Shown here one piece after another: positions 9,367-31,581 of a stretch of DNA of 33,300 bases (position 1 is its first letter; each line of letters starts with the position of its first letter). The position numbers and the translations under genes were made by a program. The notes below the pieces were generated by a model, which was not told the DNA's origin, made no database searches, and worked only from the letters and a program-made list of their open reading frames with translations. Location of the stretch: contig CAYXPX010000004.1 of the NCBI GenBank assembly GCA_964467335.1, positions 1-33,300 on the forward strand. The letters are read 5' to 3'. Origin of the DNA: Candidatus Woesearchaeota archaeon (GTDB taxonomy: Archaea; Nanobdellota; Nanobdellia; SCGC-AAA011-G17; GW2011-AR18).

Positions 9367-11151
9367 ATGAAAAAGAGTTTTTTATTTGTTTTCTTGTTTT
9401 TGTTGTTTTTAGCTACGTTTGTTTTTGCGCATAATCATGTTTCTGTCAGAATAACCGGCTTTACTATTGCAATGCCAAACCTGCATTGCCCTGCATATGA
9501 TACAGAAAGCGTGAGAATACAATGCGAGAGCGCAGGCGGCACTTTTTCTGCTACAACAGATGAAGCCGGATGCGAGCAGCCATCATGCACAAATTTCAAC
9601 CAGGAAAATTTTCAAGCCGATTATCAAAATACACAAAATTTGCAGCAGCAAACAATATGCCCCTCAATTAATAAAGCAGAGGTAATGAGAAGCTGCGGAG
9701 CAGAAGGCAAAAAATTTTCTATGGAAATTATAGATGGATGTGAATATCCTAAATGCAGCTCTTCTGAATGTCCTGGGGCAGACGTGCTTGGGGGGGAGAA
9801 AAAAGCATGCGAGAGTGCAGGAATGGGAGCATATTTTATTTACGATGTCAATAACTGCCCGACTGTTGAGTGCAGGTCGCCTGATGATTCAGGAGATATG
9901 CCTGATTTTGCAAAAAAAACCACTGCAAAACAAATGATGGCAGGATTTCCTATGGATTTCTCCCAGATGCAATGCCCTCCTGAAGCAATGTTCAAAGGGA
10001 TGGAATCTGCATGCAAATCAAAGGGAGGAAAATTTTCTGCAAAAGAATTTAATGGCTGCAAACTTCCAAACTGCGAATTCACAGCCGAAGCACATATACA
10101 AACCCCCTTCTTTTCATGCCCTTTAATAAACAAAATGGAATTTGCTGATAAATGCAAGGCAATAGGGCTTCCTGTAAAAATAAAGGTTGAAGGCGGGTGC
10201 GAAATTCCTGTGTGCGGAGAGCCTGAAGAATCACAATGCCCGCAGATTTCAAAAGAAAATATGAAAATGTGCGAAGCAGGAGGCATGAAAATTATTCCTT
10301 TTATCCTTCCAAACGGCTGCAAGGCTTTTAAGTGCACAGCAGAAGATCAATTTCAGCATGAATGCATGAAGGAAATACCAACAGAGTGGGCTGAAAAGTG
10401 CAAGCTTGACGGCGGGGGAATATACTCAAAAACAGACGACAATGGATGCATAATAAATGCACAGTGCACTGCAAAAGAGGCAATAGAATTTGAAGAGATA
10501 ACCCCTGAAGATGTTTCTATATCTGAAGCACTTGAGATTGCACTTAAACTTGAAGATGCTGAAATAAAATTCAGCGAAGCAGCTGAAAAATGCTCTTCAC
10601 TGGAAAAATATTACCTGTCAAAAGGCAATGAGGATAAATCTAGAATATTCAACAAATGTTCTGCCATATTTAATTCTGCAGGCATGCAGATCGAAGGAAT
10701 AAGAGAAATACTCAAGAAGGAACCATTAACTAGGGAATCACTTACAGAAGCAAAAGTAAAAGTCAAGGAATTAAAAAATGTTCTAAAGCAGGTTCTTCAT
10801 CTTCTTCTAAACCAGGACAGGCCTTTTGATGAAGTGAACGTATTTAAAGAAGGCAGCTGCGGATCTGACATGTCATGCTTTGAGAGCTGTCTGAAATCAT
10901 GCAGCGAATGCACATTTACAATACCTGAAGGAGGAGTTGAAATTGATGTATCCGGCCTTGATGACGGGAAATGCCTGATGGATGCAAAAGCGGTAACAGA
11001 AGACGCAAAACAAATGTACGGCGAATTCATGAAATGCAGGATAACAAATTTTGCAGCTGGATTTTCTGATAAGAAATTTGATGAATGCACTGGACCAATG
11101 GCTGAGAAAATGATGGAAATGCAGGAATCTATGGGAGGAATTCCACAATGA
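9367..11151 (+). CDS. secreted cysteine-rich repeat protein (7 x four-Cys modules plus a helical region plus a C-terminal Cys cluster)
   Basis: Sec-type signal 'MKKSFLFVFLFLLFLATFVFA'. Seven modules of the form C-P-x(9-12)-C-x3-G-G-x(10-14)-G-C-x2-P-x-C. No family recognised. Confidence 0.8.
   Translation: MKKSFLFVFLFLLFLATFVFAHNHVSVRITGFTIAMPNLHCPAYDTESVRIQCESAGGTFSATTDEAGCEQPSCTNFNQENFQADYQNTQNLQQQTICPSINKAEVMRSCGAEGKKFSMEIIDGCEYPKCSSSECPGADVLGGEKKACESAGMGAYFIYDVNNCPTVECRSPDDSGDMPDFAKKTTAKQMMAGFPMDFSQMQCPPEAMFKGMESACKSKGGKFSAKEFNGCKLPNCEFTAEAHIQTPFFSCPLINKMEFADKCKAIGLPVKIKVEGGCEIPVCGEPEESQCPQISKENMKMCEAGGMKIIPFILPNGCKAFKCTAEDQFQHECMKEIPTEWAEKCKLDGGGIYSKTDDNGCIINAQCTAKEAIEFEEITPEDVSISEALEIALKLEDAEIKFSEAAEKCSSLEKYYLSKGNEDKSRIFNKCSAIFNSAGMQIEGIREILKKEPLTRESLTEAKVKVKELKNVLKQVLHLLLNQDRPFDEVNVFKEGSCGSDMSCFESCLKSCSECTFTIPEGGVEIDVSGLDDGKCLMDAKAVTEDAKQMYGEFMKCRITNFAAGFSDKKFDECTGPMAEKMMEMQESMGGIPQ
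9487..10466 (+). repeat. seven protein-level repeats (about 33-35 aa each, four conserved Cys) inside CDS 9367..11151
   Basis: CPAYDTESVRIQCESAGGTFSATTDEAGCEQPSC / CPSINKAEVMRSCGAEGKKFSMEIIDGCEYPKC / CPGADVLGGEKKACESAGMGAYFIYDVNNCPTVEC / CPPEAMFKGMESACKSKGGKFSAKEFNGCKLPNC / CPLINKMEFADKCKAIGLPVKIKVEGGCEIPVC / CPQISKENMKMCEAGGMKIIPFILPNGCKAFKC / CMKEIPTEWAEKCKLDGGGIYSKTDDNGCIINAQC. Confidence 0.85.
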
Positions 11152-12301: not shown

Positions 12302-13042
12302 ATGCCATATGAGATAGAAAGTATTTATCAGGATATTGTAAAGAACCTGAACGACGGACTGCTTGATCCTGCTGTGCCTCTGACAGTAAATGACAAAAAA
12401 AGAAGAGCAAACCTCAGAATTTTGATCACTACCCTTGAATTTTTAAGAAAGGAAGAATCTGACAATCCATTATTTTCAGATGCAATGCATGTAATCAGCG
12501 ATTTAACAGACGTGCTTAAAAATCTGTTAAAAATTTATGATAATTACAGAAACGCGGGATTAAGACTTAGGGATTTTGACCAAAAAATTCTAAAAGAAAT
12601 CAACAGCAGGATAGTTTCCATCATTCGTTTAATTCTTGCCTGGCTTAAGAATGTAAGACAAAAATCAGAAGAAGTTGCTGCTGGAAACAATCATCTAAAA
12701 GACCTTAAACTGCATCCTAAAAACACAAGGTTTTATGCAAAGGTAAAAGAATTCAATCCAGACTATACAGAAGAAATGGTTCACCCAATAAACGAACACC
12801 AAAAAGCCATTCAGAGAAAAAGAACAACAGAAGAATTACTAAAACTTGATGTAAATGACCCAATAACCGGCGCACGAAACTACAGAAAAGGAGATGATTA
12901 TTTTTATCCTGGCTCAAAATTGATAGTTTCACAAGGACATCACAGGCTGTATGAATTATACATAAGATATCTTCAGGGAAAACTTGAAGGAAATACCTTA
13001 GTTGAATTTATTATAGATGAAAAATACCTAAAGAAAAGGTGA
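12302..13042 (+). CDS. hypothetical protein (246 aa) with a C-terminal 'QGHHRL' motif (weak ParB/Srx-like hint only)
   Basis: ORF track. The only recognisable element is 'KLIVSQGHHRLYEL', which resembles the DGHHR core of ParB-like nuclease domains. The rest is unassigned. Confidence 0.5.
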   Translation: MPYEIESIYQDIVKNLNDGLLDPAVPLTVNDKKRRANLRILITTLEFLRKEESDNPLFSDAMHVISDLTDVLKNLLKIYDNYRNAGLRLRDFDQKILKEINSRIVSIIRLILAWLKNVRQKSEEVAAGNNHLKDLKLHPKNTRFYAKVKEFNPDYTEEMVHPINEHQKAIQRKRTTEELLKLDVNDPITGARNYRKGDDYFYPGSKLIVSQGHHRLYELYIRYLQGKLEGNTLVEFIIDEKYLKKR

Positions 13043-16002: not shown

Positions 16003-16197
16003 TTATTCTTCCATAATCTTAAACTTTCTGCTTAATCCAAAATTAACCTTTAGAATTTTAAATTTTTTAAGTTTAAGGCCTTCAGCATATTTTTTTGCAG
16101 CCTCTTCAGAAGTGAAAGTTTTCAGCCTCTTCTTCCTGTTTCTTTCATTTCCAACAGGCATGTAGCGTCTTCTCCTGGTATGAACTCTCTTTGCCAT
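16003..16197 (-). CDS. small highly basic hypothetical protein (64 aa)
   Basis: ORF 16003..16212 trimmed to 'MAKRVHTRRRRYMPVGNERNRKKR...'. Arg/Lys-rich, possibly nucleic-acid binding. No family recognised. Confidence 0.4.
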   Translation of the reverse strand: MAKRVHTRRRRYMPVGNERNRKKRLKTFTSEEAAKKYAEGLKLKKFKILKVNFGLSRKFKIMEE

Positions 16198-16248
16198 GAC
16201 AGAATGCAACAAAAAAGTCTATAAAAGCTTTGCTAAGTTTCAGCGCTA

Positions 16249-16260
16249 CTTTTATATACA
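16249..16260 (+). promoter_or_regulatory. putative TATA box for the 16280-27383 operon
   Basis: 'cttttatataca' centred about 26 nt upstream of the ATG at 16280. Confidence 0.4.
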
Positions 16261-16279: not shown

Positions 16280-18316
16280 ATGCAAAAAAGGGGTCAAGCA
16301 GCAGCTTTCATAATCCTAGGTGTAATAATCCTAATTGTTGTGATAGGTTTTATGGCTGTGAAAACCGGTTTCTTAAGGGACCTTTTTGAAAAAATATCTG
16401 TGGAGAGAAGGGCTGTGCCACAGCAGATAAAACCACTGCAGGATTTTACAGACAGGTGCGTTGAGCAGACAACAGGAGAGGGCGCTGCCATCATAGGCCA
16501 GCAGGGAGGCTATATTTTTATTCAGGGAGATGAAATTCCAACAACACAATTTTCTCCGCTTGGTAGAAGCCTTGAAATAGTGCCTGCATCAGATTTCAGG
16601 ACAGCTGTGTGGTACAGGGAGAGCGGAAATGGAATACAAGAGTCAAACATGCCGTCAAAGCAAAAGATGGAAGAAGAACTGGCAGATTATATTAACTTAA
16701 ATTTTGCAGAATGCCTAAGCAACCTTACCTCATTTTCAGAGCAGGGATATTTAATAGAAGCTGATGCAGTGCCTAAAACAACAGCAAGAATAAACGAAAG
16801 AAGCATAGAATCAAGCGTTGAATTTCCAATAAATATAAGAATTCTTGATACAGAATTTACGCTTTCAGAACATGGAGGAGAGATTGACTCAAACCTGGGA
16901 CACCTGTATAATATGGCAGGCGAAATAATGAAAAAAGAAAATGATGACAATTTCCTTGAAGAAAAGACCATTGATATGCTTGTAGCATATAATGAAGAGG
17001 TTCCTTTTACAGGAACAGACCTTTCATGCAGCGAGAGAGTGTGGATAAAATCAGATGTTGAATTAAAACTTAAAAATATTTTATTTGAAAACATTGCAGC
17101 CATGAAGATAAAGGGCACGAATTATGAATTAAATGATGAAAGCCTTAAGTATCTGGAATTTGATCCTCTTTCAACAAAAGATGACACTGTTACTGCAAAC
17201 CTGATGTATATTCCTGACTGGCCAACATTTGTAGAAATAAATCCTTCAGAGGGAAATATACTAAGAAGCGATCCAGTATCCAAAAGAACAGGCGGCCTTG
17301 CAGGACTTGTATCATCATTCTTCTGTCTTAACACCTACAGGTTTGTTTATGACCTTAAGTATCCTGTGATGATAACATTAACTGATGACAGCGGCTTTTC
17401 ATTTCAGTTTGCAATGCAGGTAATAATAGACAACAACCAGCCCAAAGAAAACAAGCTTGAATTTCTTGAAGTTCCTGAGGCTGAAAATCCAATATGTGAC
17501 TTTCCACAAAGGGAGGTTACAATATTTACAGCAACACTTGATAAAAACGAAGACATTGCTCCACTTGAGGGAGTAAGCCTGAGCTACAAATGTTTTCCTG
17601 CTTCATGCCCGCTTGGAGAATCAGAGCTTAATCCAAAGGGCGAACCTGAATTAAGAACGCTTGTGCCATTATGCTTCAATGGAGTTATAGAGGGATCAAA
17701 AGAGGGATACAAACAGGTTCAAAAAATATTTTATTCATCAAACGACCCTGATGCTCCTCCATTTATGCTTGTTGTGCTTGAGCCTGTTTACAAAAAAAAT
17801 GTTGCTGTAAAGGTCATAGAGGAAGAAACTGGCGCTGTCAGAGAACCTTATGAAACAGAACAGATAAGCTTCCAGTTTTTGAGCACAGAAACAAATTTTC
17901 AGTCAAGCTATATTTATCCTGATGAAGAAATAAAAACAATTGAATTAATTCCAGGAGATTATACCTTTAATTCATACATAATTAGAGAGGCAAGCACTTA
18001 TAAAATTACATTTCCCAAGCAGACAATAGAAACATGCATTGATACCAGAGACTTTGGACTGTTTGGGTTCTTTAACCAGAAGCAGGTATGCAGTTCAACA
18101 GAGACTGAGCCTGCTGAGTTTGATACTGTACTGACTGGCGGAGCCATAAATGTTGAGCATGAATTCACAAGGGAGGAACTTGCAAGAGATGCGCCGTTAA
18201 CATTATATGTACTTTCGTCTTCAATACCTTCAGGCCAGGAAGATTTTCAGAATATTATGATAAAACTTGAAACAAATGAGGATCATCCATTATTTAGATA
18301 TCCGGAGATAGCATGA
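16280..18316 (+). CDS. extracellular protein with a type IV pilin-like (class III) signal peptide, 678 aa
   Basis: N-terminus 'MQKRGQAAAFIILGVIILIVVIGFMAV' has a short basic leader, Gly, then an uninterrupted hydrophobic helix, as in archaeal prepilin-peptidase substrates. The rest is unassigned. ATGA overlap with the next gene. Confidence 0.8.
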   Translation: MQKRGQAAAFIILGVIILIVVIGFMAVKTGFLRDLFEKISVERRAVPQQIKPLQDFTDRCVEQTTGEGAAIIGQQGGYIFIQGDEIPTTQFSPLGRSLEIVPASDFRTAVWYRESGNGIQESNMPSKQKMEEELADYINLNFAECLSNLTSFSEQGYLIEADAVPKTTARINERSIESSVEFPINIRILDTEFTLSEHGGEIDSNLGHLYNMAGEIMKKENDDNFLEEKTIDMLVAYNEEVPFTGTDLSCSERVWIKSDVELKLKNILFENIAAMKIKGTNYELNDESLKYLEFDPLSTKDDTVTANLMYIPDWPTFVEINPSEGNILRSDPVSKRTGGLAGLVSSFFCLNTYRFVYDLKYPVMITLTDDSGFSFQFAMQVIIDNNQPKENKLEFLEVPEAENPICDFPQREVTIFTATLDKNEDIAPLEGVSLSYKCFPASCPLGESELNPKGEPELRTLVPLCFNGVIEGSKEGYKQVQKIFYSSNDPDAPPFMLVVLEPVYKKNVAVKVIEEETGAVREPYETEQISFQFLSTETNFQSSYIYPDEEIKTIELIPGDYTFNSYIIREASTYKITFPKQTIETCIDTRDFGLFGFFNQKQVCSSTETEPAEFDTVLTGGAINVEHEFTREELARDAPLTLYVLSSSIPSGQEDFQNIMIKLETNEDHPLFRYPEIA

Positions 18317-21300
18317 ATAAGGCAAAAAAATTAGGGGCAATGTTCTGTATATTTCTGCTATTGTCAACTACTTTAATTTATGGCCAGACACTTGTTCCAA
18401 GGCAAGAGACTACAGATTTTACAGGGCCTGCAAGCCAGAGGGCTGATCCTCTGTTCGGAGGAAACCTTGGGGGATTTGCATACAGTGATCCATACCAGCA
18501 GGATGTGAGAAGACTAACCGGAGCTTATTCTTCACCTTTTGATGTTGCATTGGGGGAGGCAATACTTGTGATTCCTTCAAGGCAGGATCCGCCGCAGGTA
18601 AGACAGTCTGCACTTGAACAGCAGGATCTTCCTGTTTATGTTTATCTTAAAGGAATTACTGCAGGTTCATTATTATCCTCGCTGACAGGAGATGTTGAAT
18701 CAAGAGATCCATTATCAGGCATAACAAACATTCCTCCAATTGATTACATTGATATACAGGTTAATGCATCAAGCGAGGACTATGAATTTGTCAGGTTTGC
18801 AAGGCATATCAACCCAAGACCAAACAGACTATCGCTTGACAATCTCGGCATGCTTGCTGTTTATTTAAGAAAGCTCCCAAACGAGGAAGAAACGCCTGCA
18901 GACAATACAATAACACTTGACTTTAATGCAAGAATTTTTCTTAAGCTTGAAGAGAGCAATTTGCTTGGAGTTTCCCAGCAGGACCTTGCGCTAAAACAGT
19001 TTGAAAATGAGGAAGAATTTTTCAGAAACAAGAATGAGCATTCATTTTATTCTGGCAAGGGTTATGCAAGGGCAACAAGGATATCCGGAGATACAACTAC
19101 ATTATTAATTTATAACAGAGACTTAAGGCCTGTATCAGCAGCTTCAGGATTTTTAACAACAGAGGCAACAAGACAGGGATTAAGACAGCCTGTGCCAATT
19201 ACATTAAGAAGAGGAGAGGTTTCACAACCCTTAACATTTGCTTATACAGGAAATCCGCTGACTGACATGTTCAGAGTAAGACTTGATGATGTTTCCACTC
19301 CATCAGACAAGGCTGAGCTTGAATTTTACTTAAACGGAAGGACTGTAAGAAGAAAAGCAGCTGTAGGCAGAGAGATTTTTTCAGGCTCAAACTGGATTTT
19401 AAAATCAATAACAAAAACAGACAGCGGAAGAAAAGCTGACAACACAAACATTGATGCAATAGCGGCTGAGTTTAGTTTAAATGAGCAGGCAAAAAACAGA
19501 TTAATTTCAAGGGTGAATCAGCTTGGGAGTTTATCCATTTACCAGCATACAATAACACTTGAGAATAAAATAACACGTGACAGAAAATCATTGTCTTCAG
19601 AGATAATATCTGACAGCGGGGGAAACCAGCTTAAGGTTGATGTAGTTCCGATAGGCAGGGACTATGCTGAATCTCTTGAGGATGAATACTGCACTGAGGA
19701 AAACCCTGAAATTGCCAATGGAGATTTTGCATGCGATGCAATAAAATCATTCAAACAGATCATAAAATCATTTCCAGCATCTGCTGAAGCAGAAAAAGCA
19801 AAGAGAGATCTGGCTGAAATTTATGACCTGGAACTTATTGACTTCAAGTCATGCAGAAAAAAAGCTGACGGAAGGCCTGTTGATAAGAAAAAATGCGATG
19901 AGTTTAGAATGGACATGACTGACTTAGCACATTATTATTACACGCAAATTGGAGAGAAAGATACATTTGAAGCCAGATTTGGCGGCAAGGTTGGAAAGAT
20001 GCTTCTTGAGGATGAGGGAGCAACATTAAGCCTCTTAAGAACAATTAAACAGGAGGAGGAGCAGTCAACAATAAGCATAAAAATCTACAAGGATCCTTTA
20101 AGGCATGACGAAGTTCATAACATAAAGCAGCTTGATGAAATAATATTTCCTGACACAGAAATAAATTACAAGGGCAGTACAGATTATGTATGGAAAATAT
20201 CCTTAATAACAGGAGACTCAGCAACATTAAGACTTTTCAGGAAGAGCGGAGATTCTTATTCTGCAACACAGGAGGCGCCTGTCACATTAAAACTTGATGA
20301 GATAAAATCTGTCACAACATTATTCCCTGAAAGAGATGCGCTTGGAAATCCTGCAAGGCCGGAGGAAACAAGAAATGTTGTTCTGACAAAGGTGAATACT
20401 GTTGAGGAGGCATACATTACAATACTTCCAGGACCTGGGAGAGCATTTACAACTTCCACATTCAAAGTGCATATTCCTGTTGATCCAAGGCCATTTAAGT
20501 TAACACCACAACAAATGGAGTCACATATAAAAACGACAGAGGAAATAATTGAAAAATTAAATTCTGTAATTGAAAAGCTTGACAGGGTAATATCAACAAT
20601 GAAAAAATTATGCCTTGGCGTGTGGGCATTTTTAACATTAAAGAATTCAGTTTCAGGAACAAGAGCAATTGCAAGGCAGCACGTTTCTGAGAGCTATAAA
20701 TCAAGATGCCAGCAGGAGAGCCTTGAAAATCCTGACAAATTTCCCACAATGACAAGATGCCTTAACTTTTATTCTGATGAGATAACAAAAGACATAGACA
20801 GAACAGAGAAGCATATCAAAGACATTAACCTAAACATAAAGGGAAAGGCTATTGAGGATATAAATATGCTTGAATCTGATGATGAGAAAAAAATATGCGG
20901 AGGATTTACAGAATTTTCAGAGGCAGGCGCAGCGCTTGGAGCAAAAAATCAGGGAATAATAAAAGACTATAGGGACTGCCTGCTTTATGCAAAAATACAA
21001 AACGACAATGCAATAGGCGAGAACTATAAAAATTTCATTGCAGGAAGACTTGATGAATTAAAAACAAAACAGAGAGTTGAACTTTATAACAAGGCTAAGG
21101 CATTTGCTGATGCTGATTCTTCAGATTTATGGGACAGCAATAATGCAACGCATATAAGAAGGATAATTTCGCAGCTTGACAGCCAGAGGGAAACAGGGGA
21201 TGCAAAAATTGTTGATGTGGAATTCAAGAGACAGGAGCCTGGACTTTGGTTTGGAGATGCGCTTGTCCAAGACAGCTCTTCACCACAGGGAATAAAAACC

Positions 21301-24300
21301 ATCACATTAAGAGGACTGAACGAGTATGATGCAATAATACAGGACAATGAATTCAAAGACGATATACAGGCAAAAGAGCATATATGCAATGAAGTTTTGA
21401 GCAATGCAAAATGGGAAAATTCCAGATGTTCAGATGAAAATGTCCAAACAAGAAACAGAGATGACGAATTAGACAGAAAGATTCTGGATCTTAAGAAAAA
21501 GCCTGCAATGAACGGTCCATATCACAGGTTTATTACCAATGATTACTATGAAACTGCACATGGATTTCGTGCAGAATTAACAGAAAATGAATGCAAAAGA
21601 GTTAATGGAAAGTGGAAAGGAATTTTAGGCTCTGGCCTTCTAGCAGAATGTGAACCACAGGAGTATTCAACATCATATATTCTTGATTCAGCTGGAAGGC
21701 AGATAAACCAATTTTACTCAGAAGACCCTCTTCCAGCATATTACAGGGATGACGGCTTAACATATTGCTATCCAACAGGAAACGGGGATTATGCTTTGGT
21801 TGTAGAAAGATTCCAGGGGCAGAATAAACTAATAAACAAAATTACTGTATTTAATGTCGGCCCTAACGGCAGGATTGAGTGCGGCGCAGGAGATGATGAG
21901 ATTGTTCATCTTTCAGACAAACTGGATGTACTCCCTGAACTGAAGAGAAGCTATATTTCAAAAGAGCCGCAGGCAAGATGCACTCCAAAAGAGGATGGAA
22001 AATCTGTTGGCAGAAAAATTAACGGAAAAGATGTTGTATGCAAAACCGGACTTGCAGGCGACAGATATAATGAATTGTTAAAACCACAGTGCATTGATGT
22101 TATGGATCCTGCAGACTGCAAGATAATGTTTAACTTCTGCGATCCTGTGATGTGCCCAAGCTCAAGATGCACGCTTGGCGGCAGAGTGCCTGAGAGAGAT
22201 GTTATACAGTCTGGAATTATCGGATCAACTTTGTTATGCCTTCCAAATGTTAAGGAGGGAATTGCAGTACCTGTTTGTTTAACTGGAATAAGTGCGGGGT
22301 TGAAATCAATAAGAAGCGTTCTTGAGGGTTACAAAAGCTGCCTTGAAATAAAATTAAACAACAATGAAAACGTAGGTTTCTGCGATTACATAAGGTCTGT
22401 CGGAATATGCGAAGTTGTGTGGAAAGAGACTTATAATCTGTTAAATATTGGAGGGAGAGGACTGCTTGACTGGGTTTCAGGAAATGTATTCGGAGAGGCA
22501 AAGGGCGGAGGAGAATATTTAACGTTCCAGAGCAGCCTTGATAATGTAGGGAAAAGCGCCAGAGTATTTACTGAAGAATACAAAACAACTTATACAGCGC
22601 AATTTTTATCGCAGTCGACAGAAGATATAGGAACACAGATATGCAGGCTGAGTGTGAATGGAAAACTTCCAAATGTCGGCAAGATACTTGACCAGCTTAC
22701 AGAACCTGAAAATCCTCCGCAGTTTACAGCATTTTTTGATGAAAGACCCTATGCTGCGCCTGGAGAGGCACTGCCTTCGCCTACTATACCTGCAGGAACA
22801 CAGGAGGTTTCAATGTACAGGGTGCTTTACCACATTTATGCAGGCACTGGATTTTTCCAGGGAGCATACTCCCAGCCTGTAAGCTTATTTAATCCAAACA
22901 CACCATTAGGAGATCCGCAGGCAATTACTTATTCAGTGTTCCTGAGAAATCAGCAGCTAGGACTTCCAATTATGTATGTAACATTTTCAGGAGAATTAAG
23001 CCAGCAGATTGGTAGGATAGATCCTGGAAAGTTCCAGCAGCAGACTGTGCAAAAACCAGGGCCAAAGGGTTACAATGAAATATGTGTCGTGATAAACGGA
23101 GTTGAGCACTGCGGATTTGGGAAGGTTGGCACATCATTTGGATTTGATGAGCTGCAGGATGCATTAACTGCAGGAGAGGCAGCAGAGGAGATTAACTCTG
23201 CTGAGAAATGTGTTCCAAGCTCAAGAACATCAAGAGAATATTCAATTGCAAAGCTAGGAGCTGTTGCAGGTACTGCGCTTACAGTAGGAGGAACTGCAGC
23301 AGGAATTGCAACTTCTGGAATAGAAAAAGATCTCACGAGCACAGGAGTTGTAAGGGTATGCAGTGCAGAGTCTCCTACACCTGAAACAGGAAGATGGAGA
23401 AATGTTGGATCATGCGGAGAGGATGAGAGAGGGAAGAACCTTGGGGCATGCTGGCTTGACATGGAATCTGCAACAATCAAAGACAGAAAAATAAATGAAG
23501 ATTTGTACAGGGAGATATCTGAAAGAGCTGGAGAGAGATTTGAGTCAATAGATAAAAACACAGCAAGCGAGATATTTTTTGCATTGAACAAAAGAAGGGA
23601 TGCAATACTGCAGCAGCTTAGAAGCGAGATAAGAGACGCGCTTAGTGGGAGGGCACCAACATCTGAACCAAAGAAAATTGTCATAAGGCCGCCAGCACCT
23701 GTGACACTAGGCTTAAGAGCAGAGAATGTTTATGATGTATACCTAACAGACAAAGATATTGAGAGAGAGCTAAGCCCTTATATTTACAGAGAAGTGCAGG
23801 AACATGAAGGCATAGACTATTTTTTCATAAAATCAATAATAAAGAAAGAAAGCGACTGGAGAGAGGATCTTGTTGGGGCATGCGGAGAGGCAGGAATTAT
23901 ACAACTGCAACCATCTACTGCAGAAGATGCAATTAAACATGGTGCACCAATAACAAAAATACTCAATCCAATACCAGGAACAAGCATAAGTTTTAGGGGA
24001 GGATGTGACAGAGAATACGGCCAGGCACTTGAAAATTTTATCAGTGGAAAAAGTCATGAAGAGCTTGTTCAGCTTGACGAGAGATTTGATAATGAGAAGG
24101 CAATTAAGACAGCAATGATTTATTTTGAGAAATTTATTGTAAATGCCTACAAAAAAAATGAAATTCCATTAACTGTTGAAAACATTGCAGCAGGATATAA
24201 TGCAGGAGCTGGAGCTGTTATAAGCGGCAATATTCCTGAAAGAACAAAAGATAAATATATGCCGAATGTAAGAAGAGATTACGACAGCTTGTTTAACAAG

Positions 24301-25041
24301 GCGCAGCAGAGAATTGCTTCTGCAGGGGCAGCAGGAACAACCGCAGCAGCAGGAGTCGAAAAGGACGCTGAATGTGCAAGAGCATTTGGAACTGAGGACT
24401 ATGTTGCGATAGTACAGGACAATACAATTGCATGCGATGCAAATGACAGAGATTTGTGCTGCACAAGAAAAGAATTAGTGCCTCATATTGAGAGAATAAG
24501 AGAAACTGCTGCTAATGCAAAAAAAGTCATAGTAATAGTTGATCCTACAAGAACACCTGCTGACCAGAGACTTGCCTTCCTGGATTATCTTGCAGGAGGC
24601 GTACTTGCATGCGGACCAAACAGCATGAGCGGGCCAGAAAAAGAGGGAATTGCACGCAGAATTCCAAATACTGGAAATACAAAAGAGGAAAGAATACAAA
24701 CAACCTTAAGCAATTTAGATTCAGCAACAAAAGCAAAGATTAATGATGGATCAGAATATTTAAGATGTCCTCATGTTATGGGAAGGGCACTTGATATAAA
24801 GTTTGCAGGCATGCCAAGCATATACAAAGAATTAAAGGATATGACAGATTCAGAACTAATGGCTGTAAAACAGTTCCGTGAATTTATGTGCGACATTGGA
24901 TGGGCAAATTTAGGAAAAGAGTGGTGGCATTATGAAATAACATCTAGTTCATACAGAACAGCAAAAAATTCAAACAGCTGCCATTGGGGAACTTTGGTAG
25001 GACCTGAACCAGACGCAACTCCGGATTATAAATATGCATAA
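18313..25041 (+). CDS. giant secreted protein (2,242 aa) with a C-terminal SLT lytic transglycosylase module and an M15/LAS-type peptidoglycan peptidase module
   Basis: Uninterrupted 6.7 kb ORF. Sec signal 'MNKAKKLGAMFCIFLLLSTTLIYGQ'. SLT block 'IIKKESDWREDLVGACGEAGIIQLQPSTAE...AAGYNAGAGAV'. M15 block 'RTPADQRL...CPHVMGRALDIKF...GKEWWHYEI'. About 1,800 N-terminal residues are unassigned, including a Cys-rich segment. Confidence 0.85.
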   Translation: MNKAKKLGAMFCIFLLLSTTLIYGQTLVPRQETTDFTGPASQRADPLFGGNLGGFAYSDPYQQDVRRLTGAYSSPFDVALGEAILVIPSRQDPPQVRQSALEQQDLPVYVYLKGITAGSLLSSLTGDVESRDPLSGITNIPPIDYIDIQVNASSEDYEFVRFARHINPRPNRLSLDNLGMLAVYLRKLPNEEETPADNTITLDFNARIFLKLEESNLLGVSQQDLALKQFENEEEFFRNKNEHSFYSGKGYARATRISGDTTTLLIYNRDLRPVSAASGFLTTEATRQGLRQPVPITLRRGEVSQPLTFAYTGNPLTDMFRVRLDDVSTPSDKAELEFYLNGRTVRRKAAVGREIFSGSNWILKSITKTDSGRKADNTNIDAIAAEFSLNEQAKNRLISRVNQLGSLSIYQHTITLENKITRDRKSLSSEIISDSGGNQLKVDVVPIGRDYAESLEDEYCTEENPEIANGDFACDAIKSFKQIIKSFPASAEAEKAKRDLAEIYDLELIDFKSCRKKADGRPVDKKKCDEFRMDMTDLAHYYYTQIGEKDTFEARFGGKVGKMLLEDEGATLSLLRTIKQEEEQSTISIKIYKDPLRHDEVHNIKQLDEIIFPDTEINYKGSTDYVWKISLITGDSATLRLFRKSGDSYSATQEAPVTLKLDEIKSVTTLFPERDALGNPARPEETRNVVLTKVNTVEEAYITILPGPGRAFTTSTFKVHIPVDPRPFKLTPQQMESHIKTTEEIIEKLNSVIEKLDRVISTMKKLCLGVWAFLTLKNSVSGTRAIARQHVSESYKSRCQQESLENPDKFPTMTRCLNFYSDEITKDIDRTEKHIKDINLNIKGKAIEDINMLESDDEKKICGGFTEFSEAGAALGAKNQGIIKDYRDCLLYAKIQNDNAIGENYKNFIAGRLDELKTKQRVELYNKAKAFADADSSDLWDSNNATHIRRIISQLDSQRETGDAKIVDVEFKRQEPGLWFGDALVQDSSSPQGIKTITLRGLNEYDAIIQDNEFKDDIQAKEHICNEVLSNAKWENSRCSDENVQTRNRDDELDRKILDLKKKPAMNGPYHRFITNDYYETAHGFRAELTENECKRVNGKWKGILGSGLLAECEPQEYSTSYILDSAGRQINQFYSEDPLPAYYRDDGLTYCYPTGNGDYALVVERFQGQNKLINKITVFNVGPNGRIECGAGDDEIVHLSDKLDVLPELKRSYISKEPQARCTPKEDGKSVGRKINGKDVVCKTGLAGDRYNELLKPQCIDVMDPADCKIMFNFCDPVMCPSSRCTLGGRVPERDVIQSGIIGSTLLCLPNVKEGIAVPVCLTGISAGLKSIRSVLEGYKSCLEIKLNNNENVGFCDYIRSVGICEVVWKETYNLLNIGGRGLLDWVSGNVFGEAKGGGEYLTFQSSLDNVGKSARVFTEEYKTTYTAQFLSQSTEDIGTQICRLSVNGKLPNVGKILDQLTEPENPPQFTAFFDERPYAAPGEALPSPTIPAGTQEVSMYRVLYHIYAGTGFFQGAYSQPVSLFNPNTPLGDPQAITYSVFLRNQQLGLPIMYVTFSGELSQQIGRIDPGKFQQQTVQKPGPKGYNEICVVINGVEHCGFGKVGTSFGFDELQDALTAGEAAEEINSAEKCVPSSRTSREYSIAKLGAVAGTALTVGGTAAGIATSGIEKDLTSTGVVRVCSAESPTPETGRWRNVGSCGEDERGKNLGACWLDMESATIKDRKINEDLYREISERAGERFESIDKNTASEIFFALNKRRDAILQQLRSEIRDALSGRAPTSEPKKIVIRPPAPVTLGLRAENVYDVYLTDKDIERELSPYIYREVQEHEGIDYFFIKSIIKKESDWREDLVGACGEAGIIQLQPSTAEDAIKHGAPITKILNPIPGTSISFRGGCDREYGQALENFISGKSHEELVQLDERFDNEKAIKTAMIYFEKFIVNAYKKNEIPLTVENIAAGYNAGAGAVISGNIPERTKDKYMPNVRRDYDSLFNKAQQRIASAGAAGTTAAAGVEKDAECARAFGTEDYVAIVQDNTIACDANDRDLCCTRKELVPHIERIRETAANAKKVIVIVDPTRTPADQRLAFLDYLAGGVLACGPNSMSGPEKEGIARRIPNTGNTKEERIQTTLSNLDSATKAKINDGSEYLRCPHVMGRALDIKFAGMPSIYKELKDMTDSELMAVKQFREFMCDIGWANLGKEWWHYEITSSSYRTAKNSNSCHWGTLVGPEPDATPDYKYA
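23770..24300 (+). other. SLT (lytic transglycosylase, goose-lysozyme-like) domain of the giant protein
   Basis: Catalytic 'ES' in 'KSIIKKESDW', then 'GEAGIIQLQPSTAEDA' and 'IAAGYNAGAGAVISG' in the canonical order and spacing. Confidence 0.75.
24450..24960 (+). other. peptidase M15 / VanY-like (LAS zinc hydrolase) domain of the giant protein
   Basis: 'HVMGRALD' (H-x6-D zinc motif preceded by a small residue) and 'EWWHYE' (third ligand / E-x-W-H motif) about 45 aa apart. Confidence 0.65.
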
Positions 25042-26641
25042 AAAAATATTATTAACAATGTTTGTACTGCTTTCCCTAGCTGCAGCAGTTTATTCTCCTG
25101 AAGATTCATGCGAGGGAAAGGCAGTATGCCTACAAAAAGATTTACCTGAGAGCCAGCAGAAGATTGAAGAGCTTTATAATCTAAACATTGGCGGCACAGG
25201 ATACAGGGACATAGTTGACAGATCTGCAGATATTTCCATAGGCTTGCAGGCATTGTACGAGGCAGGCAGAACTGCAAAGGAGCTCGCACTTTTAAGGGCG
25301 CAGTATGAGGGAATAGGAAAAGCTGAATTAATTATAGAACAAAGAATAACAACGTCTACAACCACAGAAGACGCTCCTGATTTTACAGAGGAGGATATTC
25401 CAGAGATAGATTTTTCTGAGGTGCTGAAAAGAGAAAAGAAAGAATTAGCTGAATCACAGATTGAATCTGCAAACATAAGATTAAATGACGGGAGCCTGTT
25501 TTCAAGAGATTATTTTGTGAGATTTAAAAATGGAAAGTGGGAGTGGTGCAAGAATCCTGTTTTTGGAAGCTGCGATGACAAGAAATTTAATTCTATACAT
25601 TTTCCAAAAAAGGAAGAGGCAGGAGAATTTTATGAAATTTTATACTCATTAGAAACTGCTAACATTGAGGGTGGATCTTTTTCTCGTGAAGGCGTGCCTC
25701 TACCAGAAACAGCAATTTATGAAAGGGGGCTTGTAGATATTTTAAGAAAACTTGTATTTTTAAGGCTAGGAATTTCAGAAATGATTTTTGAAATTGGCAA
25801 CAGCAGAGTCTATGTCGAGGCTGACACAACAAGAGTTGTTGAGAGATTTGATATAATAATCAGCAACAGAAAAGCATTTGTATCAGGGGCAGATGATGTA
25901 AGGAAATTTATAACCACGACAGAGCCTTTCAGGCCGCAGTTTGAAAATATATTTCAGGAATTCAAAAATCTTGTAGATAGGAAATCTGCACAGTCTTCGC
26001 CATTTGAGGCACAGCCTGGAGGAATACCTGAGGAAGAATTGGAGATGGAAGAAAGATTTATAGAGGAAGGGGAGGAAGATAGAAAAAGCAATAATATTCT
26101 TGATGGATTTAATTTAGAAGGAGCACAGGTAATTAAGTATAGATTTAATGAGGGGCCTAATAAAACGAGAAAATTATCAGATGTTGACAGAGTGGTACTC
26201 CACCATACAGAGGGCTCAGCTCCAGGACAGAGGACGGTTGACTATTTAATTGACAGAAGAGGACTTTCTATACATTATGTGGTGGATAAGGATGGAAATA
26301 TAATCTATGCAATGTCAGAAGATATGGTTGCATTTCATGCCGGATGCAAAAGAGATAAGGAAATTTTTTGTGTTGAAGGTATGAATGAAAGGTCAATAGG
26401 AATTGAGATCACAAACAGTGGAAGGTCCGATGATTTGTTTACTGATGCTCAATATAACACTTTACGACAGCTTCTCCCCTATATAACCAACAATTTAGGA
26501 ATACCTTTTGATAATGAGCATATTATAGCACACTATGAGATAACAAGCAATAAGGATGACCCACAATACTTCCTCTGGGATAAAATAGGACTTTCTAGTC
26601 ATATTTCATACAATGAATTCAAAAGAGAGCATTATGCTTAA
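25034..26641 (+). CDS. secreted N-acetylmuramoyl-L-alanine amidase (Amidase_2/PGRP fold) with a novel roughly 380-aa N-terminal region
   Basis: Signal 'MHKKILLTMFVLLSLAAAVYS'. C-terminal 'VVLHHTEGS...LSIHYVVDKDGNIIYAMSEDMVAFHAG...NERSIGIEITNSG...FTDAQYNTLRQLL...IIAHYEITSNKDDP' is the Amidase_2 pattern. 8-nt overlap (ATGCATAA) with the giant gene. Confidence 0.8.
   Translation: MHKKILLTMFVLLSLAAAVYSPEDSCEGKAVCLQKDLPESQQKIEELYNLNIGGTGYRDIVDRSADISIGLQALYEAGRTAKELALLRAQYEGIGKAELIIEQRITTSTTTEDAPDFTEEDIPEIDFSEVLKREKKELAESQIESANIRLNDGSLFSRDYFVRFKNGKWEWCKNPVFGSCDDKKFNSIHFPKKEEAGEFYEILYSLETANIEGGSFSREGVPLPETAIYERGLVDILRKLVFLRLGISEMIFEIGNSRVYVEADTTRVVERFDIIISNRKAFVSGADDVRKFITTTEPFRPQFENIFQEFKNLVDRKSAQSSPFEAQPGGIPEEELEMEERFIEEGEEDRKSNNILDGFNLEGAQVIKYRFNEGPNKTRKLSDVDRVVLHHTEGSAPGQRTVDYLIDRRGLSIHYVVDKDGNIIYAMSEDMVAFHAGCKRDKEIFCVEGMNERSIGIEITNSGRSDDLFTDAQYNTLRQLLPYITNNLGIPFDNEHIIAHYEITSNKDDPQYFLWDKIGLSSHISYNEFKREHYA
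26180..26610 (+). other. Amidase_2 catalytic domain within CDS 25034..26641
   Basis: See the motif string in the parent CDS. Confidence 0.75.
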
Positions 26642-27383
26642 ATCAAAGAAACTGCCGGTAATGATTGTGCTGGAGATAATATTTGCAATACTATTAATTG
26701 CTTTCCTGATTTTGGTAAGGCAGCAGGCTCTTGGCTATGTTTCAGAGATTCAGTCTTATGCCGGGGATATAGATTTGATCTCACAGCAGGCAACGCAGAA
26801 TGATCTCTCGCCTGAACAAAGATACAGCATAGACCAGACCGTAAGCTCTTTTGATAAAATATTAAACAAGTCGCTTATATTACTGCAGCTAATTCTTCCA
26901 TTAACTATTTTTATTATGTCTATTATATTTTTTTATTTTATATGGCATTTTATAAACAAGATTACATTCAAAAGATTTTTAACTTATTCAATAATTCCAA
27001 TCATTTTACTGCTTGCTTCCGTGTTCTTTACAATAAATTATATAGCATATGTTTATTTCTTTGTTGATGAAAACCCAATGCCTTATTTGATAGTTTCTTC
27101 ACTGTTGTTGATAATAACTTATTATATTTCACTATTTGGCCTCTCAAACAAAAATAACTTGAAATCAAATCTCAAAATTTCACTCAAAAAATTTACCAAA
27201 GTTTTTCCTTTTTATATAATTATATTCATCACAAACGCCTTGTATCTAGTTTTTGTTTTTTATGTTTTTTTTCTTACATTTGCAAAAGCTTCAATTTTGA
27301 TACAATCTCTGATACTGCTTGCCGTCATTATAATAATAAATATACAAAGAGTTCATTTAGTAAAAATTATTTCTAGACAATAG
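26634..27383 (+). CDS. polytopic membrane protein (about 6 TM helices), last gene of the muralytic operon
   Basis: ORF 26613..27383 trimmed to the ATG at 26634 ('MLKSKKLPVMIVLEIIFAILLIAF'), giving an ATGCTTAA overlap with the amidase gene. Very hydrophobic and Ile/Phe-rich. No family recognised. Confidence 0.65.
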   Translation: MLKSKKLPVMIVLEIIFAILLIAFLILVRQQALGYVSEIQSYAGDIDLISQQATQNDLSPEQRYSIDQTVSSFDKILNKSLILLQLILPLTIFIMSIIFFYFIWHFINKITFKRFLTYSIIPIILLLASVFFTINYIAYVYFFVDENPMPYLIVSSLLLIITYYISLFGLSNKNNLKSNLKISLKKFTKVFPFYIIIFITNALYLVFVFYVFFLTFAKASILIQSLILLAVIIIINIQRVHLVKIISRQ

Positions 27384-27652: not shown

Positions 27653-28048
27653 TTATCTTTCGAATTTTTTGATTTTGCCATTTTTAATCCATTGCTTGAT
27701 TTCTTCATCGCTATAGTAATTTTCTCTTAGGCCTAATAATGTCTTAGCATAATGTGGATCATCTTCTATTTTAAACTTTTGATTGTTGCTTAATATGAAC
27801 TCTTTTGTTACTATAAATGCTGTTCTTCTATTTCCGCTTGCAAACGGATGTTTCTGAACTAAACCTTTTAGTAAAACAACTGCTTTATCGTAAATGTCCC
27901 CTTCTTTTTCTTCACATTCTTTTATAACTTCTACAATTTTACTTCTGCTCAAAACTTTTGGTGCGTCAGCTTTTTTCACTTTTATTAATTCTAGAGCTAA
28001 TATGTTGTATTCTATAATCTGCTCTGGTGTTGGATAAATTATTTCCAT
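27653..28048 (-). CDS. doc: Fic/Doc-family protein (death-on-curing-type toxin)
   Basis: 'VQKHPFASGNRRTAFIVT' matches the Doc variant of the Fic motif (HxFx[DNS][AG]N[KR]R). 131 aa, typical Doc size. Confidence 0.75.
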   Translation of the reverse strand: MEIIYPTPEQIIEYNILALELIKVKKADAPKVLSRSKIVEVIKECEEKEGDIYDKAVVLLKGLVQKHPFASGNRRTAFIVTKEFILSNNQKFKIEDDPHYAKTLLGLRENYYSDEEIKQWIKNGKIKKFER

Positions 28049-28135: not shown

Positions 28136-28600
28136 TTAATCTTTAAATTGTATTGGAATACTCTCTCCCTTTCCTTTTCTAACTTTAAAAACATTAAAGT
28201 GTAAGTGGGGTTCTGTAGTAAGCCCAGTCATTCCCACATAACCTATGATTTCTCCAACATTTATTTTTTGTCCTTTCTTTACTGGAACATTTTTATCTAA
28301 ATGTCCATATTCTCCATAACTTCCGTCAGAATGAGCAATATAGACGCGATTTGTATATTTATTTACAAAATTTGTTATTTCTTCTGAACTCATTGAACTA
28401 ATTATTTTTGGATCACTAATAAATTTATTTGAATCTTTCTTTAAAGCAACAACTTTTCCTGATCTTGTAGCCAAAATAGGTGTTCCTAATGGGGCTGGAA
28501 AGTCTACCGCAAATCTGGATTCAATGAATTTTGTATGATGTTCTCCAGTATGTTTTTTAGATTTAATATTGCTTGGAAATGGATAAGCATATTTTACCAT
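28136..28600 (-). CDS. short M23-like peptidase without a signal peptide (first zinc motif non-canonical)
   Basis: 'AVDFPAPLGTPILATRSGKVV' and 'GMTGLTTEPHLHFNVF' (HxH) are M23 blocks. The HxxxD His is replaced ('SRFAVD'). No N-terminal hydrophobic segment. Confidence 0.7.
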   Translation of the reverse strand: MVKYAYPFPSNIKSKKHTGEHHTKFIESRFAVDFPAPLGTPILATRSGKVVALKKDSNKFISDPKIISSMSSEEITNFVNKYTNRVYIAHSDGSYGEYGHLDKNVPVKKGQKINVGEIIGYVGMTGLTTEPHLHFNVFKVRKGKGESIPIQFKD

Positions 28601-30557: not shown

Positions 30558-30938
30558 ATGGTAGTCTATCATGAATATTCAAAGAGAAAGGTTTCAGGAG
30601 GCAGATATATCCCTGCAAGAAAAAAAAGACTCTTTAACACAGGGTCAACTCCTGCATATACAAAGGTTGGCGAGAAAAAAACAAGAGTAAGAAGGCAAAT
30701 TGGCGGTAAATTAAAAATATTTCTTATTTCAGCAGACAGCGTGAATGTTTTTGATCCAAAGACAAAAAAGGGAAAGATTGCAAAAATAACTGCTGTTGTT
30801 GAAAATCCTGCAAACAGGCACTTCATAAGAAGAAACATAATAACAAAAGGCGCAGTTGTTGAAACAAATATTGGCAAAGTAAAGATAACCTCGAGACCAG
30901 GACAGGAAAACACAATCAGCGGTGTTTTGATTTCCTAG
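30558..30938 (+). CDS. rps8e: 30S ribosomal protein eS8 (S8e)
   Basis: 'SKRKVSGGRYIPARKKR', 'ENPANRHFIRRNIITKGAVVET', 'VKITSRPGQENTISGVL' are typical S8e blocks. Confidence 0.9.
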   Translation: MVVYHEYSKRKVSGGRYIPARKKRLFNTGSTPAYTKVGEKKTRVRRQIGGKLKIFLISADSVNVFDPKTKKGKIAKITAVVENPANRHFIRRNIITKGAVVETNIGKVKITSRPGQENTISGVLIS

Positions 30939-31581
30939 AAAGCAGCACTGCTATCAGATAAAGAACAAAAATAACTGCCGCTGTTATCAGAATAAAATTA
31001 AAAATCTTTTCTATCTTTCTTTTTTCAGGGATTTTTTCATCTGCCTTTGGATTATACGGCGTAACTTTATCAAAATCTATAAATGTTGGCTTGACTTCAC
31101 TGAAGTCTGTTACGCCTGTTTTTATGGAATTTACCAGAAAGTATAGCATTACAAACCTCTCTTCAGGACCTCCCTTATTTCTTGCCATCCTTGACGTGAT
31201 TGTTATTTTTGGGTTAAATTCATATGTGTAATTTATTACATAGTCTTTACCAAGATTAAACACAACCTCTTCATATTCAGAACCATCTGCTGATAAAAGA
31301 GCAGTTATTGTGTTATTTTCAATCCTGTTAATAACCATGCTGTTCTGAATCAGGATTCTGAAGCTGTCAGGATCTACAACATTAAAATCAAGCCTGCTTC
31401 CCTCGTGTATTGTAATATATGTTTTTGAGAACATTGGAAGCTGTGCTGTTGCGTTTTTGCCGTATGATACTTCTATTGCCTGCTCATTTAAAGTGTTAAA
31501 CCTTTTTTCTGCTTCCTGAGAAAAGGCTGTATTCATCAATAAAAGCATTAATACTGCCAAGATAAATAATTTAGACTTCAT
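30916..31581 (-). CDS. secreted, C-terminally membrane-anchored hypothetical protein (221 aa)
   Basis: Signal 'MKSKLFILAVLMLLLMNTAFS'. C-terminal TM plus basic tail 'IFNFILITAAVIFVLYLIAVLLSRKSKHR'. 23-nt convergent overlap with rps8e. Confidence 0.6.
   Translation of the reverse strand: MKSKLFILAVLMLLLMNTAFSQEAEKRFNTLNEQAIEVSYGKNATAQLPMFSKTYITIHEGSRLDFNVVDPDSFRILIQNSMVINRIENNTITALLSADGSEYEEVVFNLGKDYVINYTYEFNPKITITSRMARNKGGPEERFVMLYFLVNSIKTGVTDFSEVKPTFIDFDKVTPYNPKADEKIPEKRKIEKIFNFILITAAVIFVLYLIAVLLSRKSKHR

Follow-up and report, generated by a model that had tools for sequence, protein, structure and literature searches.

A family of giant exported proteins in Woesearchaeota and related archaea joins a conserved scaffold to exchangeable, predicted wall-hydrolase tails

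The gene examined here encodes a giant protein of 2,242 amino acids and lies on a 33,300-nucleotide stretch of Candidatus Woesearchaeota DNA (contig CAYXPX010000004.1, positions 1 to 33,300), referred to below as the window. It occupies positions 18313-25041 of the plus strand as a single, intact, ATG-started open reading frame (ORF), just as the original prediction from the letters alone had it; every coordinate of that prediction agreed with the motif positions. The protein starts with a Sec-type signal peptide (residues 1-24, 18313-18384, +), reading MNKAKKLGAMFCIFLLLSTTLIYG directly ahead of QT, and a similar N-terminus is present in 40+ relatives. Apart from a marginal Gly/Ala run, this N-terminal segment alone reaches transmembrane-level hydropathy. 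The predicted Sec signal and the cellular archaeal setting were both borne out, by hydropathy and by the neighbouring genes, respectively.

The giant gene is the second of four closely packed genes on the plus strand. Upstream is a gene for a Cys-rich, extracellular protein of 678 amino acids, here called the partner (16280-18316, +), whose stop overlaps the giant start by 4 nucleotides. An archaeal TATA-box-like element, TTTATATA, read directly from the sequence at 16251-16258 (+), 22-29 nucleotides upstream of the partner ATG, is the putative promoter of the operon. The third gene (25034-26641, +) overlaps the giant gene by 8 nucleotides and encodes 535 amino acids with a signal peptide and a C-terminal Amidase_2 domain (residues 382-511, Pfam E 1.4e-25), for which PHROG endolysin/amidase matches were also found. 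It overlaps by 29 nucleotides the fourth gene (26613-27383, +), encoding a polytopic membrane protein of 256 amino acids with about six predicted transmembrane (TM) segments. The giant gene is co-transcribed and translationally coupled with the partner, amidase and membrane-protein genes.

The original prediction had allowed for several genes being artificially fused into one long frame. We found no point in favour of such an assembly or frameshift artefact, to which we give practically no chance. The nearest relative found in a word-index search is itself a full-length protein of 2,251 amino acids with 81% identity, and all of the 87 fetched related loci, from many separate assemblies, hold one uninterrupted giant ORF (1,600-3,740 amino acids) with the same order of blocks. 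Since each of these 87 loci carries one uninterrupted giant ORF, an assembly fusion is excluded; the full-length frame is conserved among relatives.

Two enzyme modules stand at the C-terminus. The first is a lytic transglycosylase module of the SLT (GH23) type, covering about residues 1815-1990 (23755-24282, +). In the whole protein Pfam matched residues 1827-1887 (E 1e-8, 35.2 bits against a cut-off of 21.3), and a protein fragment matched PF01464 with E 7.3e-11 and 42.1 bits. The hallmarks of SLT/GH23 enzymes are a catalytic Glu in an E-S motif, G-[LIV]-[MI]-Q and A-Y-N-x-G; reading by eye we located KKES (residues 1844-1847), GIIQLQ (1861-1866) and AGYNAG (1960-1965). By score and motifs the module is a member of PF01464, and murein cleavage is predicted for it. 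Pfam reported SLT alone for the whole giant protein, and overlapping fragments searched at E <= 10 added nothing credible.

The second module, at about residues 2040-2215 (24430-24957, +), resembles zinc peptidases of the M15/VanX-like (LAS) type. Where the original prediction stacked an SLT and an M15 domain, the SLT domain stands above its Pfam cut-off and the M15 assignment is retained in weaker form, as a remote profile match with catalytic residues, below threshold. The window protein, whole or in fragments, did not match Pfam Peptidase_M15 (PF01427), and its match to NCBIfam VanX was weak (E 2.5e-3, 17.7 bits against a cut-off of 320). P0002, P0012 and the giant protein of locus L036 have homologous tails, as do the products of separate downstream genes at loci L022 and L030. 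Four of six such tails matched Peptidase_M15 (best E 6.1e-5), and a six-sequence profile matched VanX (1r44) with E 2.4e-4 over the E-x-x-H region. In the six-sequence tail alignment (A7), R, Q, H-x6-D and E-x-x-H are invariant. These are R70, Q75, H144, D151, E193 and H196 in tail numbering; conversion of the invariant columns to full-protein numbering gives R2080, Q2085, H2154, D2161, E2203 and H2206, in agreement with the motifs TRTPADQ (2079-2085), CPHVMGRALD (2152-2161) and EWWHYE (2203-2208). We take these to be the residues that bind zinc and carry out catalysis in VanX-type LAS peptidases, where the Arg would bind substrate and the Glu of E-x-x-H would be catalytic. The last module is thus best described as a predicted, remote LAS/M15-like peptidase that lies under the threshold for PF01427 membership.

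The long region ahead of the wall hydrolases, up to about residue 1775, has no assigned family, as had been predicted: it found no match in Pfam, NCBIfam, PHROGs, PDB sequences or Foldseek. Its beginning, originally characterised as Ser/Thr/Asp-rich and beta-looking, is so both in composition, the three residues making up 20-25% of the first 700 amino acids, and in a mostly-beta AlphaFold2 model. The model of residues 25-1135 was usable, with a mean predicted local distance difference test (pLDDT) score of 72.9 and a predicted template modelling (pTM) score of 0.40 (protein numbering equals model residue plus 24). It shows a beta-rich part at about residues 77-375, a helical, TPR-like part at about 449-555, a second beta-rich part at about 560-725, a long helical bundle at about 732-956 (model residues 708-932) and an alpha/beta part at about 969-1125. 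Searched with Foldseek against PDB and BFVD, this model gave no match at E <= 1e-3; the best matches were chains with generic immunoglobulin (Ig)-like domains, for example the ice-binding adhesin 5irb and complement C3.

Local hidden Markov models (HMMs) for eight blocks of the region, applied to 158 family sequences, detected C1 in 158, C2 in 157, C3 in 155, M in 141, N in 133, C0 in 104, N2 in 32 and H in 16, always in the same order. Block N (residues 60-360, 18490-19392, +) is beta-rich, modelled mostly as strands at a pLDDT of about 75-88. Block M (residues 691-900, 20383-21012, +) carries the motif PVDPRPFK (722-729) and, after it, a helix about 49 residues long that belongs to the helical bundle and contains the conserved KKLCLGVWAFLTL. 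Block C0 (residues 1131-1257, 21703-22083, +) is a beta-sandwich and, alone in the C-terminal half, was modelled with confidence (pLDDT 74-83); Foldseek returned weak, generic matches to ApaG/Ig-like sandwiches (E 1.5e-3).

Blocks C1 to C3 make up a disulfide-rich core by which the family is defined (residues 1258-1775, 22084-23637, +). Over 65 species (alignment A6) the core keeps 16 invariant Cys residues together with invariant D, R, E, Y and Q, and its motifs include CDPVxCPSSRC, GGGEYL, FFDExPY, YHIYAG and CWLD. A Cys-dense block had been placed at about nucleotides 22090-22430, and it lies exactly there, from QCIDVMDP at nucleotide 22087 to ICEVVW at nucleotide 22422, with 10 Cys between residues 1260 and 1366. 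The core had no relative in PDB or Pfam, even when the 65-species profile was used, and a Pfam scan of all members gave no recurrent family.

Within the core, residues 1297-1333 (22201-22311) comprise two neighbouring Gly/Ser-rich segments, VIQSGIIGSTLLCLPNV and IAVPVCLTGISAGLKSI, that are conserved and moderately hydrophobic. Averaged over 65 sequences, their Kyte-Doolittle hydropathy is 1.41 and 1.28, which is below the TM range, and the pair may represent either a buried hairpin of helices or a membrane-active element.

A Gly/Ala-rich stretch also lies inside the core, at residues 1645-1670 (23245-23322, +), where the original prediction had put it. The membrane-inserting or fusion-like character suggested for it did not hold: the stretch scores a marginal hydropathy of 1.43, differs in length and sequence from one close relative to the next, and is replaced by a gap in the distant giant P0010. 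Being variable in close relatives and missing in P0010, it is a flexible linker of variable length and not a conserved hydrophobic element.

Taken from its N-terminus, the scaffold thus consists of a beta-rich part, a TPR-like helical part, a second beta-rich part, a helical bundle, an alpha/beta part, a beta-sandwich and the 16-Cys core. A Pro-rich linker joins these ~1,750 residues to an exchangeable C-terminal tail.

Beyond the nearest relative, seven more proteins, named Woesearchaeota or Nanoarchaeia at source, are 37-45% identical over 76-90% of the length. Among these close relatives conservation extends from about residue 60 to about residue 1775, and divergence is complete after that point. 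The distant giants P0010 and P0011 share three stretches with the window protein (residues 86-350, 684-843 and 1259-1736); block N is present in both. An exhaustive HMMER search with residues 1130-1780 as query matched the representatives of 963 clusters (50% identity), 832 with E <= 1e-30. Almost every one measures 1,600-3,700 amino acids and has its core near residues 1,000-1,800. In a scan of one genome per GTDB species, relatives were found in 548 genomes; the best 80 of these, for which taxonomy was read, are all metagenome-assembled genomes (MAGs) of Woesearchaeota, Pacearchaeota, Nanoarchaeia or Nanoarchaeota.

Giant proteins of this kind have been described before, so that the "candidate new protein architecture" of the original prediction was not borne out. 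Castelle et al. 2021 (PMC8204110) reported fam00969, an extracellular family of up to 3,000 amino acids with a murein transglycosylase domain, and proposed that it binds and degrades bacterial walls, the same role that we arrive at below; Rinke 2013 and Castelle 2015 are cited there for earlier descriptions. Vigneron et al. 2022 (PMC9723730) noted a "large lytic murein transglycosylase" in Woesearchaeota MAGs. By size, Sec signal, SLT domain and lineage, our family, which is characteristic of Woesearchaeota and Pacearchaeota, appears to be fam00969, judged by the published description (here 2,242 amino acids, Sec signal, SLT, relatives named Woesearchaeota, Pacearchaeota or Nanoarchaeia). The two agree in being giant (up to about 3,000 amino acids or more), extracellular, SLT-bearing and found in the same DPANN lineages. 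They differ in what defines the family: the earlier paper uses the SLT domain and leaves the rest undescribed, whereas we find the scaffold to be the conserved, defining part, SLT being present in about a fifth to two-fifths of the tails. The scaffold, not the SLT domain, defines the family. Compared with the published description, the window member also adds the M15-like peptidase, and the operon partners were apparently undescribed before, as far as our literature search showed. New here, then, are the scaffold-based definition, the swapped tails in fused or split form, the M15-like peptidase module, and two conserved companions, the partner and the membrane protein.

The chromosomal position of the gene is conserved as well. 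In the window and in loci L001, L005, L006, L007 and L088 it lies in a syntenic site between S3Ae and L37e/LSM/S8e/TFIIB, and the gene is inherited vertically within one DPANN clade. The window neighbours are genes for ribosomal proteins (S15/S13_N, S3Ae, L37e and S8e) and for LSM, TFIIB, TrmB, Gins51 and SRP54; RIO kinase and Fic or toxin-antitoxin genes are further neighbours in the window or the related loci.

These surroundings bear on the analogy, drawn in the original prediction, with phage tape-measure proteins, virion-associated lysins and conjugative channel-punching proteins of the VirB1/TraG type. Such proteins are likewise long and end in SLT, M23 or amidase domains that breach murein locally, so that the arrangement, with wall hydrolases at the end of a long region, is similar, and the SLT region has a weak match (E 2.4e-4) to the PHROG family "lytic tail fiber". 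All PHROG matches of the giant protein are confined to the SLT domain, however, and none touches the scaffold; Foldseek found nothing in BFVD at E <= 1e-3, the 2.9 million contigs of IMG/VR contain no relatives of the family, and neither the window nor the related loci with listed genes have phage or conjugation genes near the giant gene. In place of structural or conjugation genes there are ribosomal and transcription genes, at a site that is syntenic even in distant relatives, and a Sec signal and chromosomal vertical inheritance further set the protein apart from phage and conjugative lysins, with which it shares no homology. The analogy was therefore not upheld, no known adhesin or tape-measure family was matched, and we consider a phage or mobile-element origin to be highly improbable.

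The tails are where close relatives differ. The window protein and P0002 end in SLT plus the M15-like module, P0003 in SLT plus M23, P0004 in M23 and P0006 in SLT, whereas P0005 and P0007-P0009 carry something else or nothing; the scaffolds of these proteins are 38-45% identical. In a Pfam survey of tails from 68 species, SLT was found in 15, M23 in 3, SH3_3 in 3 and a transglutaminase-like domain in 2, with Amidase_2, DPBB_1, Glucosaminidase, DUF1615, GDSL lipase, TIG, Big_7 and Ank in one each; the majority matched no family.

Where the giant protein ends shortly after its scaffold (tails of 20 residues or fewer), the next ORF is 386-1,269 amino acids long and usually overlaps it by 1-14 nucleotides, whereas after a giant with a long tail the gene of about 255 amino acids mostly comes next. 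Among 22 downstream ORFs examined, Pfam assigned Amidase_2 to 4, SLT to 3, Peptidase_M64 to 2, and M23, Hydrolase_2 and Exo_endo_phos to one each; two others have unrelated housekeeping domains (RsmB and PfkB) and are probably outside the operon. In locus L010 the amidase is inside the giant tail itself. The hydrolase may thus be fused to the giant protein or encoded by a separate downstream gene. In the third gene of the window, the conserved N-terminal ~320 residues are 62% identical to the counterpart beside the 81%-identical giant, and that counterpart has no amidase.

Three loci have large separate downstream genes (1,109-1,609 amino acids) carrying tail modules, namely L018 (6024-9833, with SLT and amidase), L022 (5603-8932) and L030 (10009-14838), the latter two with an M15-like domain. 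These proteins have long unassigned N-terminal parts of their own.

In 61 of the 69 loci that could be tested, a homologue of the partner lies directly upstream of the giant gene and next to it, usually overlapping it by ATGA; other loci with an upstream homologue failed the adjacency rule, at least in some cases from a giant start called too early. The partner N-terminus, MQKRGQAAAFIILGVIILIVVIGFMAV, has the appearance of a class III (prepilin-like) signal or a signal anchor. Class III signals combine a short basic N-terminus, [KR]-G, a Q or A at +1 and a hydrophobic helix of about 20 residues. The consensus over 62 partner sequences is M.KRGQVT.FIIIGI, with Q6 at least 90% conserved, and 12 Cys are invariant (alignments A5 and A9). 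The N-terminus conforms to the class III motif. We found no Pfam or PDB match for the partner, either with all members against Pfam or with the 62-species profile against PDB sequences. For the fourth gene, an iterated HMM search found a homologue downstream of the giant gene on the same strand in 44 of 87 loci, where it abuts the giant gene or sits 1-6 kb further on, behind an inserted gene.

Downstream of the giant gene of locus L003, at a distance of 4-6 kb, is a cluster of AhpC/Redoxin, DsbD_TM and glutaredoxin/thioredoxin-like genes (19841-21972), which might help to form disulfides in these Cys-rich exported proteins.

A conserved N-terminal region with a C-terminal part that varies among close relatives recalls the polymorphic toxin systems (CdiA, Rhs/YD and MafB) reportedly set out by Zhang, Aravind and colleagues in 2012. 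The giant family shows this pattern. In both cases a long conserved region for delivery or presentation is followed by a rapidly exchanged C-terminal effector, and separate cassettes occur downstream. There is nevertheless no similarity in sequence or fold, and Pfam scans of the giant protein and of family members found none of the trafficking or pre-toxin domains TPS, FHA, RHS, PAAR and LXG. The downstream genes encode hydrolases and a polytopic membrane protein instead of an evident immunity gene, the recognisable effectors are wall hydrolases and not nucleases or deaminases, the host is an archaeon, and export is by Sec.

In bacterial type IV pili, the large PilY1/PilC proteins are tip adhesins that act with minor pilins. 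The giant protein is comparable in being a large Sec-exported non-pilin encoded beside a protein with a prepilin-type N-terminus, and the likeness suggests, by analogy, display on a pilus or membrane stalk. The partner, at about 650 amino acids, is however far larger than a pilin, and the window contains no pilus assembly genes, prepilin peptidase or assembly ATPase.

Experiments have demonstrated the killing of bacteria by secreted wall hydrolases of other archaea, and such genes are prominent in Nanoarchaeota (PMC12352652). The secreted peptidoglycan hydrolases Woldo and Danwoldo of Halogranum and a GH25 enzyme of Aciduliprofundum (PMC12352652) resemble our family in being archaeal, exported, of bacterial type and aimed at bacteria. 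They are small and modular (catalytic and peptidoglycan-binding domains), patchily distributed and often plasmid-borne, in contrast to the giant, lineage-wide and chromosomally syntenic proteins described here.

We consider it probable, with room for doubt, that the giant protein is a scaffold held at the surface, where it presents wall hydrolases to bacteria that serve as host or prey. It would be kept on the archaeal surface, or on a pilus-like fibre, by the partner and possibly also by the polytopic membrane protein, and the scaffold would project the hydrolase tail toward a bacterial neighbour. There the SLT module would cut glycan strands and the LAS peptidase and the amidase, as predicted from their families, peptide stems and cross-links; jointly these enzymes might open the sacculus locally for attachment, feeding or killing. 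The producer would need no immunity protein, because archaea make no murein.

Several observations weigh against this proposal. Tails shorter than 30 residues occur in 7 of 74 relatives (about 10%), and no hydrolase was recognisable in the L003 operon or in some others; given such tail-less members and hydrolase-free operons, the primary role of the scaffold may lie elsewhere. Neither sequence nor hydropathy gave a C-terminal anchor in the giant protein, and the placing of the scaffold at the surface and in contact with a host is our inference. The AlphaFold2 model of residues 1130-2242, made from an 11-sequence alignment, is poor (pLDDT 43.9) except at about residues 1140-1250, which leaves the fold of the core unmodelled. 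To these points we add the PF01427 threshold, which the window protein does not reach, the taxonomy, which covers the best 80 of 548 genomes, and the strictly syntenic core-genome location, which would also suit a structural envelope protein.

The last point leads to a different reading, that the giant protein and its membrane-anchored partner form the main envelope or S-layer-like structure and the hydrolase tails are optional. The S-layer of Sulfolobales offers a parallel in SlaA and SlaB, which are encoded adjacently. The strict conservation of the pair, one protein large and Sec-exported, the other smaller and anchored, would fit, as would the very wide distribution, the single giant gene per fetched locus at a syntenic housekeeping site, the TATA-like element ahead of the operon and the members without hydrolase tails. 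On the other hand, neither Foldseek nor a PDB profile search found similarity to solved S-layer proteins, and the Cys-rich, multi-domain make-up with helical bundles is, to our knowledge, atypical of them. Rapid tail swapping and fused-or-split cassettes also resemble genes of conflict or host interaction and not those of a lattice. We therefore judge an envelope role to be unlikely, though it deserves more weight than any of the other alternatives to a hydrolase-presenting scaffold.

Free release was also considered, in which the protein would be a bacteriolysin or wall scavenger and its N-terminal part would serve substrate binding or stability without cell anchoring. The Sec signal, the missing C-terminal anchor and the presence of several further exported wall hydrolases in the genome are compatible with this, and secreted archaeal wall hydrolases exist (PMC12352652). 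A 1,750-residue scaffold kept over hundreds of species is disproportionate for a diffusible enzyme, though, tail-less members exist, and translational coupling with the membrane-anchored partner and the polytopic membrane protein speaks for a complex assembled at the surface. We hold free release to be improbable.

SLT, M23, amidase and LAS peptidase domains are those of classical autolysins in bacteria, which raises the question of whether the archaeon remodels a murein-like wall of its own. We regard this as very improbable: neither the window nor the loci with listed genes showed any gene for mur-type wall synthesis, and (pseudo)murein is not known from archaea other than Methanobacteria and Methanopyri (PMC12352652).

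A bolder version of the surface-held scaffold is that partner, giant scaffold and polytopic membrane protein together constitute an unrecognised, lineage-defining archaeal apparatus for contact-dependent interaction with bacteria, which we offer tentatively as less likely than the scaffold proposal itself. A surface- or pilus-anchored stalk would then present or deliver exchangeable C-terminal effectors, as a counterpart of CdiA/Rhs, and the core, given the conserved moderately hydrophobic pair at residues 1297-1333, might be membrane-active. If the three proteins do form such an apparatus, the tails would record the bacterial host or prey of each lineage.

Woesearchaeota and Pacearchaeota rank with the most abundant of the uncultured archaea. 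A universal giant surface protein with an exchangeable, murein-directed tail would be the most direct indication from genome data that bacteria, and not other archaea, are what many of them live on. A definition by scaffold, a fixed operon and swappable hydrolases turn the annotation "large SLT protein" into a testable system, and the disulfide-rich core of about 520 residues and the partner of about 650 are large, widespread domains with neither a family model nor a known fold.

Other genes of the window were noted in passing. A 347-residue Peptidase_M23 protein with a twin-arginine-type N-terminus, MSELSRRGFLGG, is encoded at 6854-7897 (+; Pfam E 7.7e-19) and is predicted to be one more exported wall hydrolase within these 33 kb. 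Another Peptidase_M23 protein, of 154 amino acids with no evident signal peptide (28136-28600, -; Pfam E 1.5e-21), is encoded just downstream of the operon, and a 131-residue Fic/DOC gene (27653-28048, E 1.4e-7) adjoins it. Just upstream of the operon and divergent from it, a very basic 69-residue protein of no known family is encoded at 16003-16212 (-); tblastn found it at the matching position in 13 related loci, with 50-69% identity. ORFs of 594 amino acids (9367-11151, +) and 246 amino acids (12302-13042, +) have no Pfam family, and locus L088 carries a 586-residue gene at the matching position. Finally, between S8e and TFIIB, a 221-residue protein that also has no Pfam match (30916-31581, -) combines an N-terminal signal with a C-terminal hydrophobic anchor.

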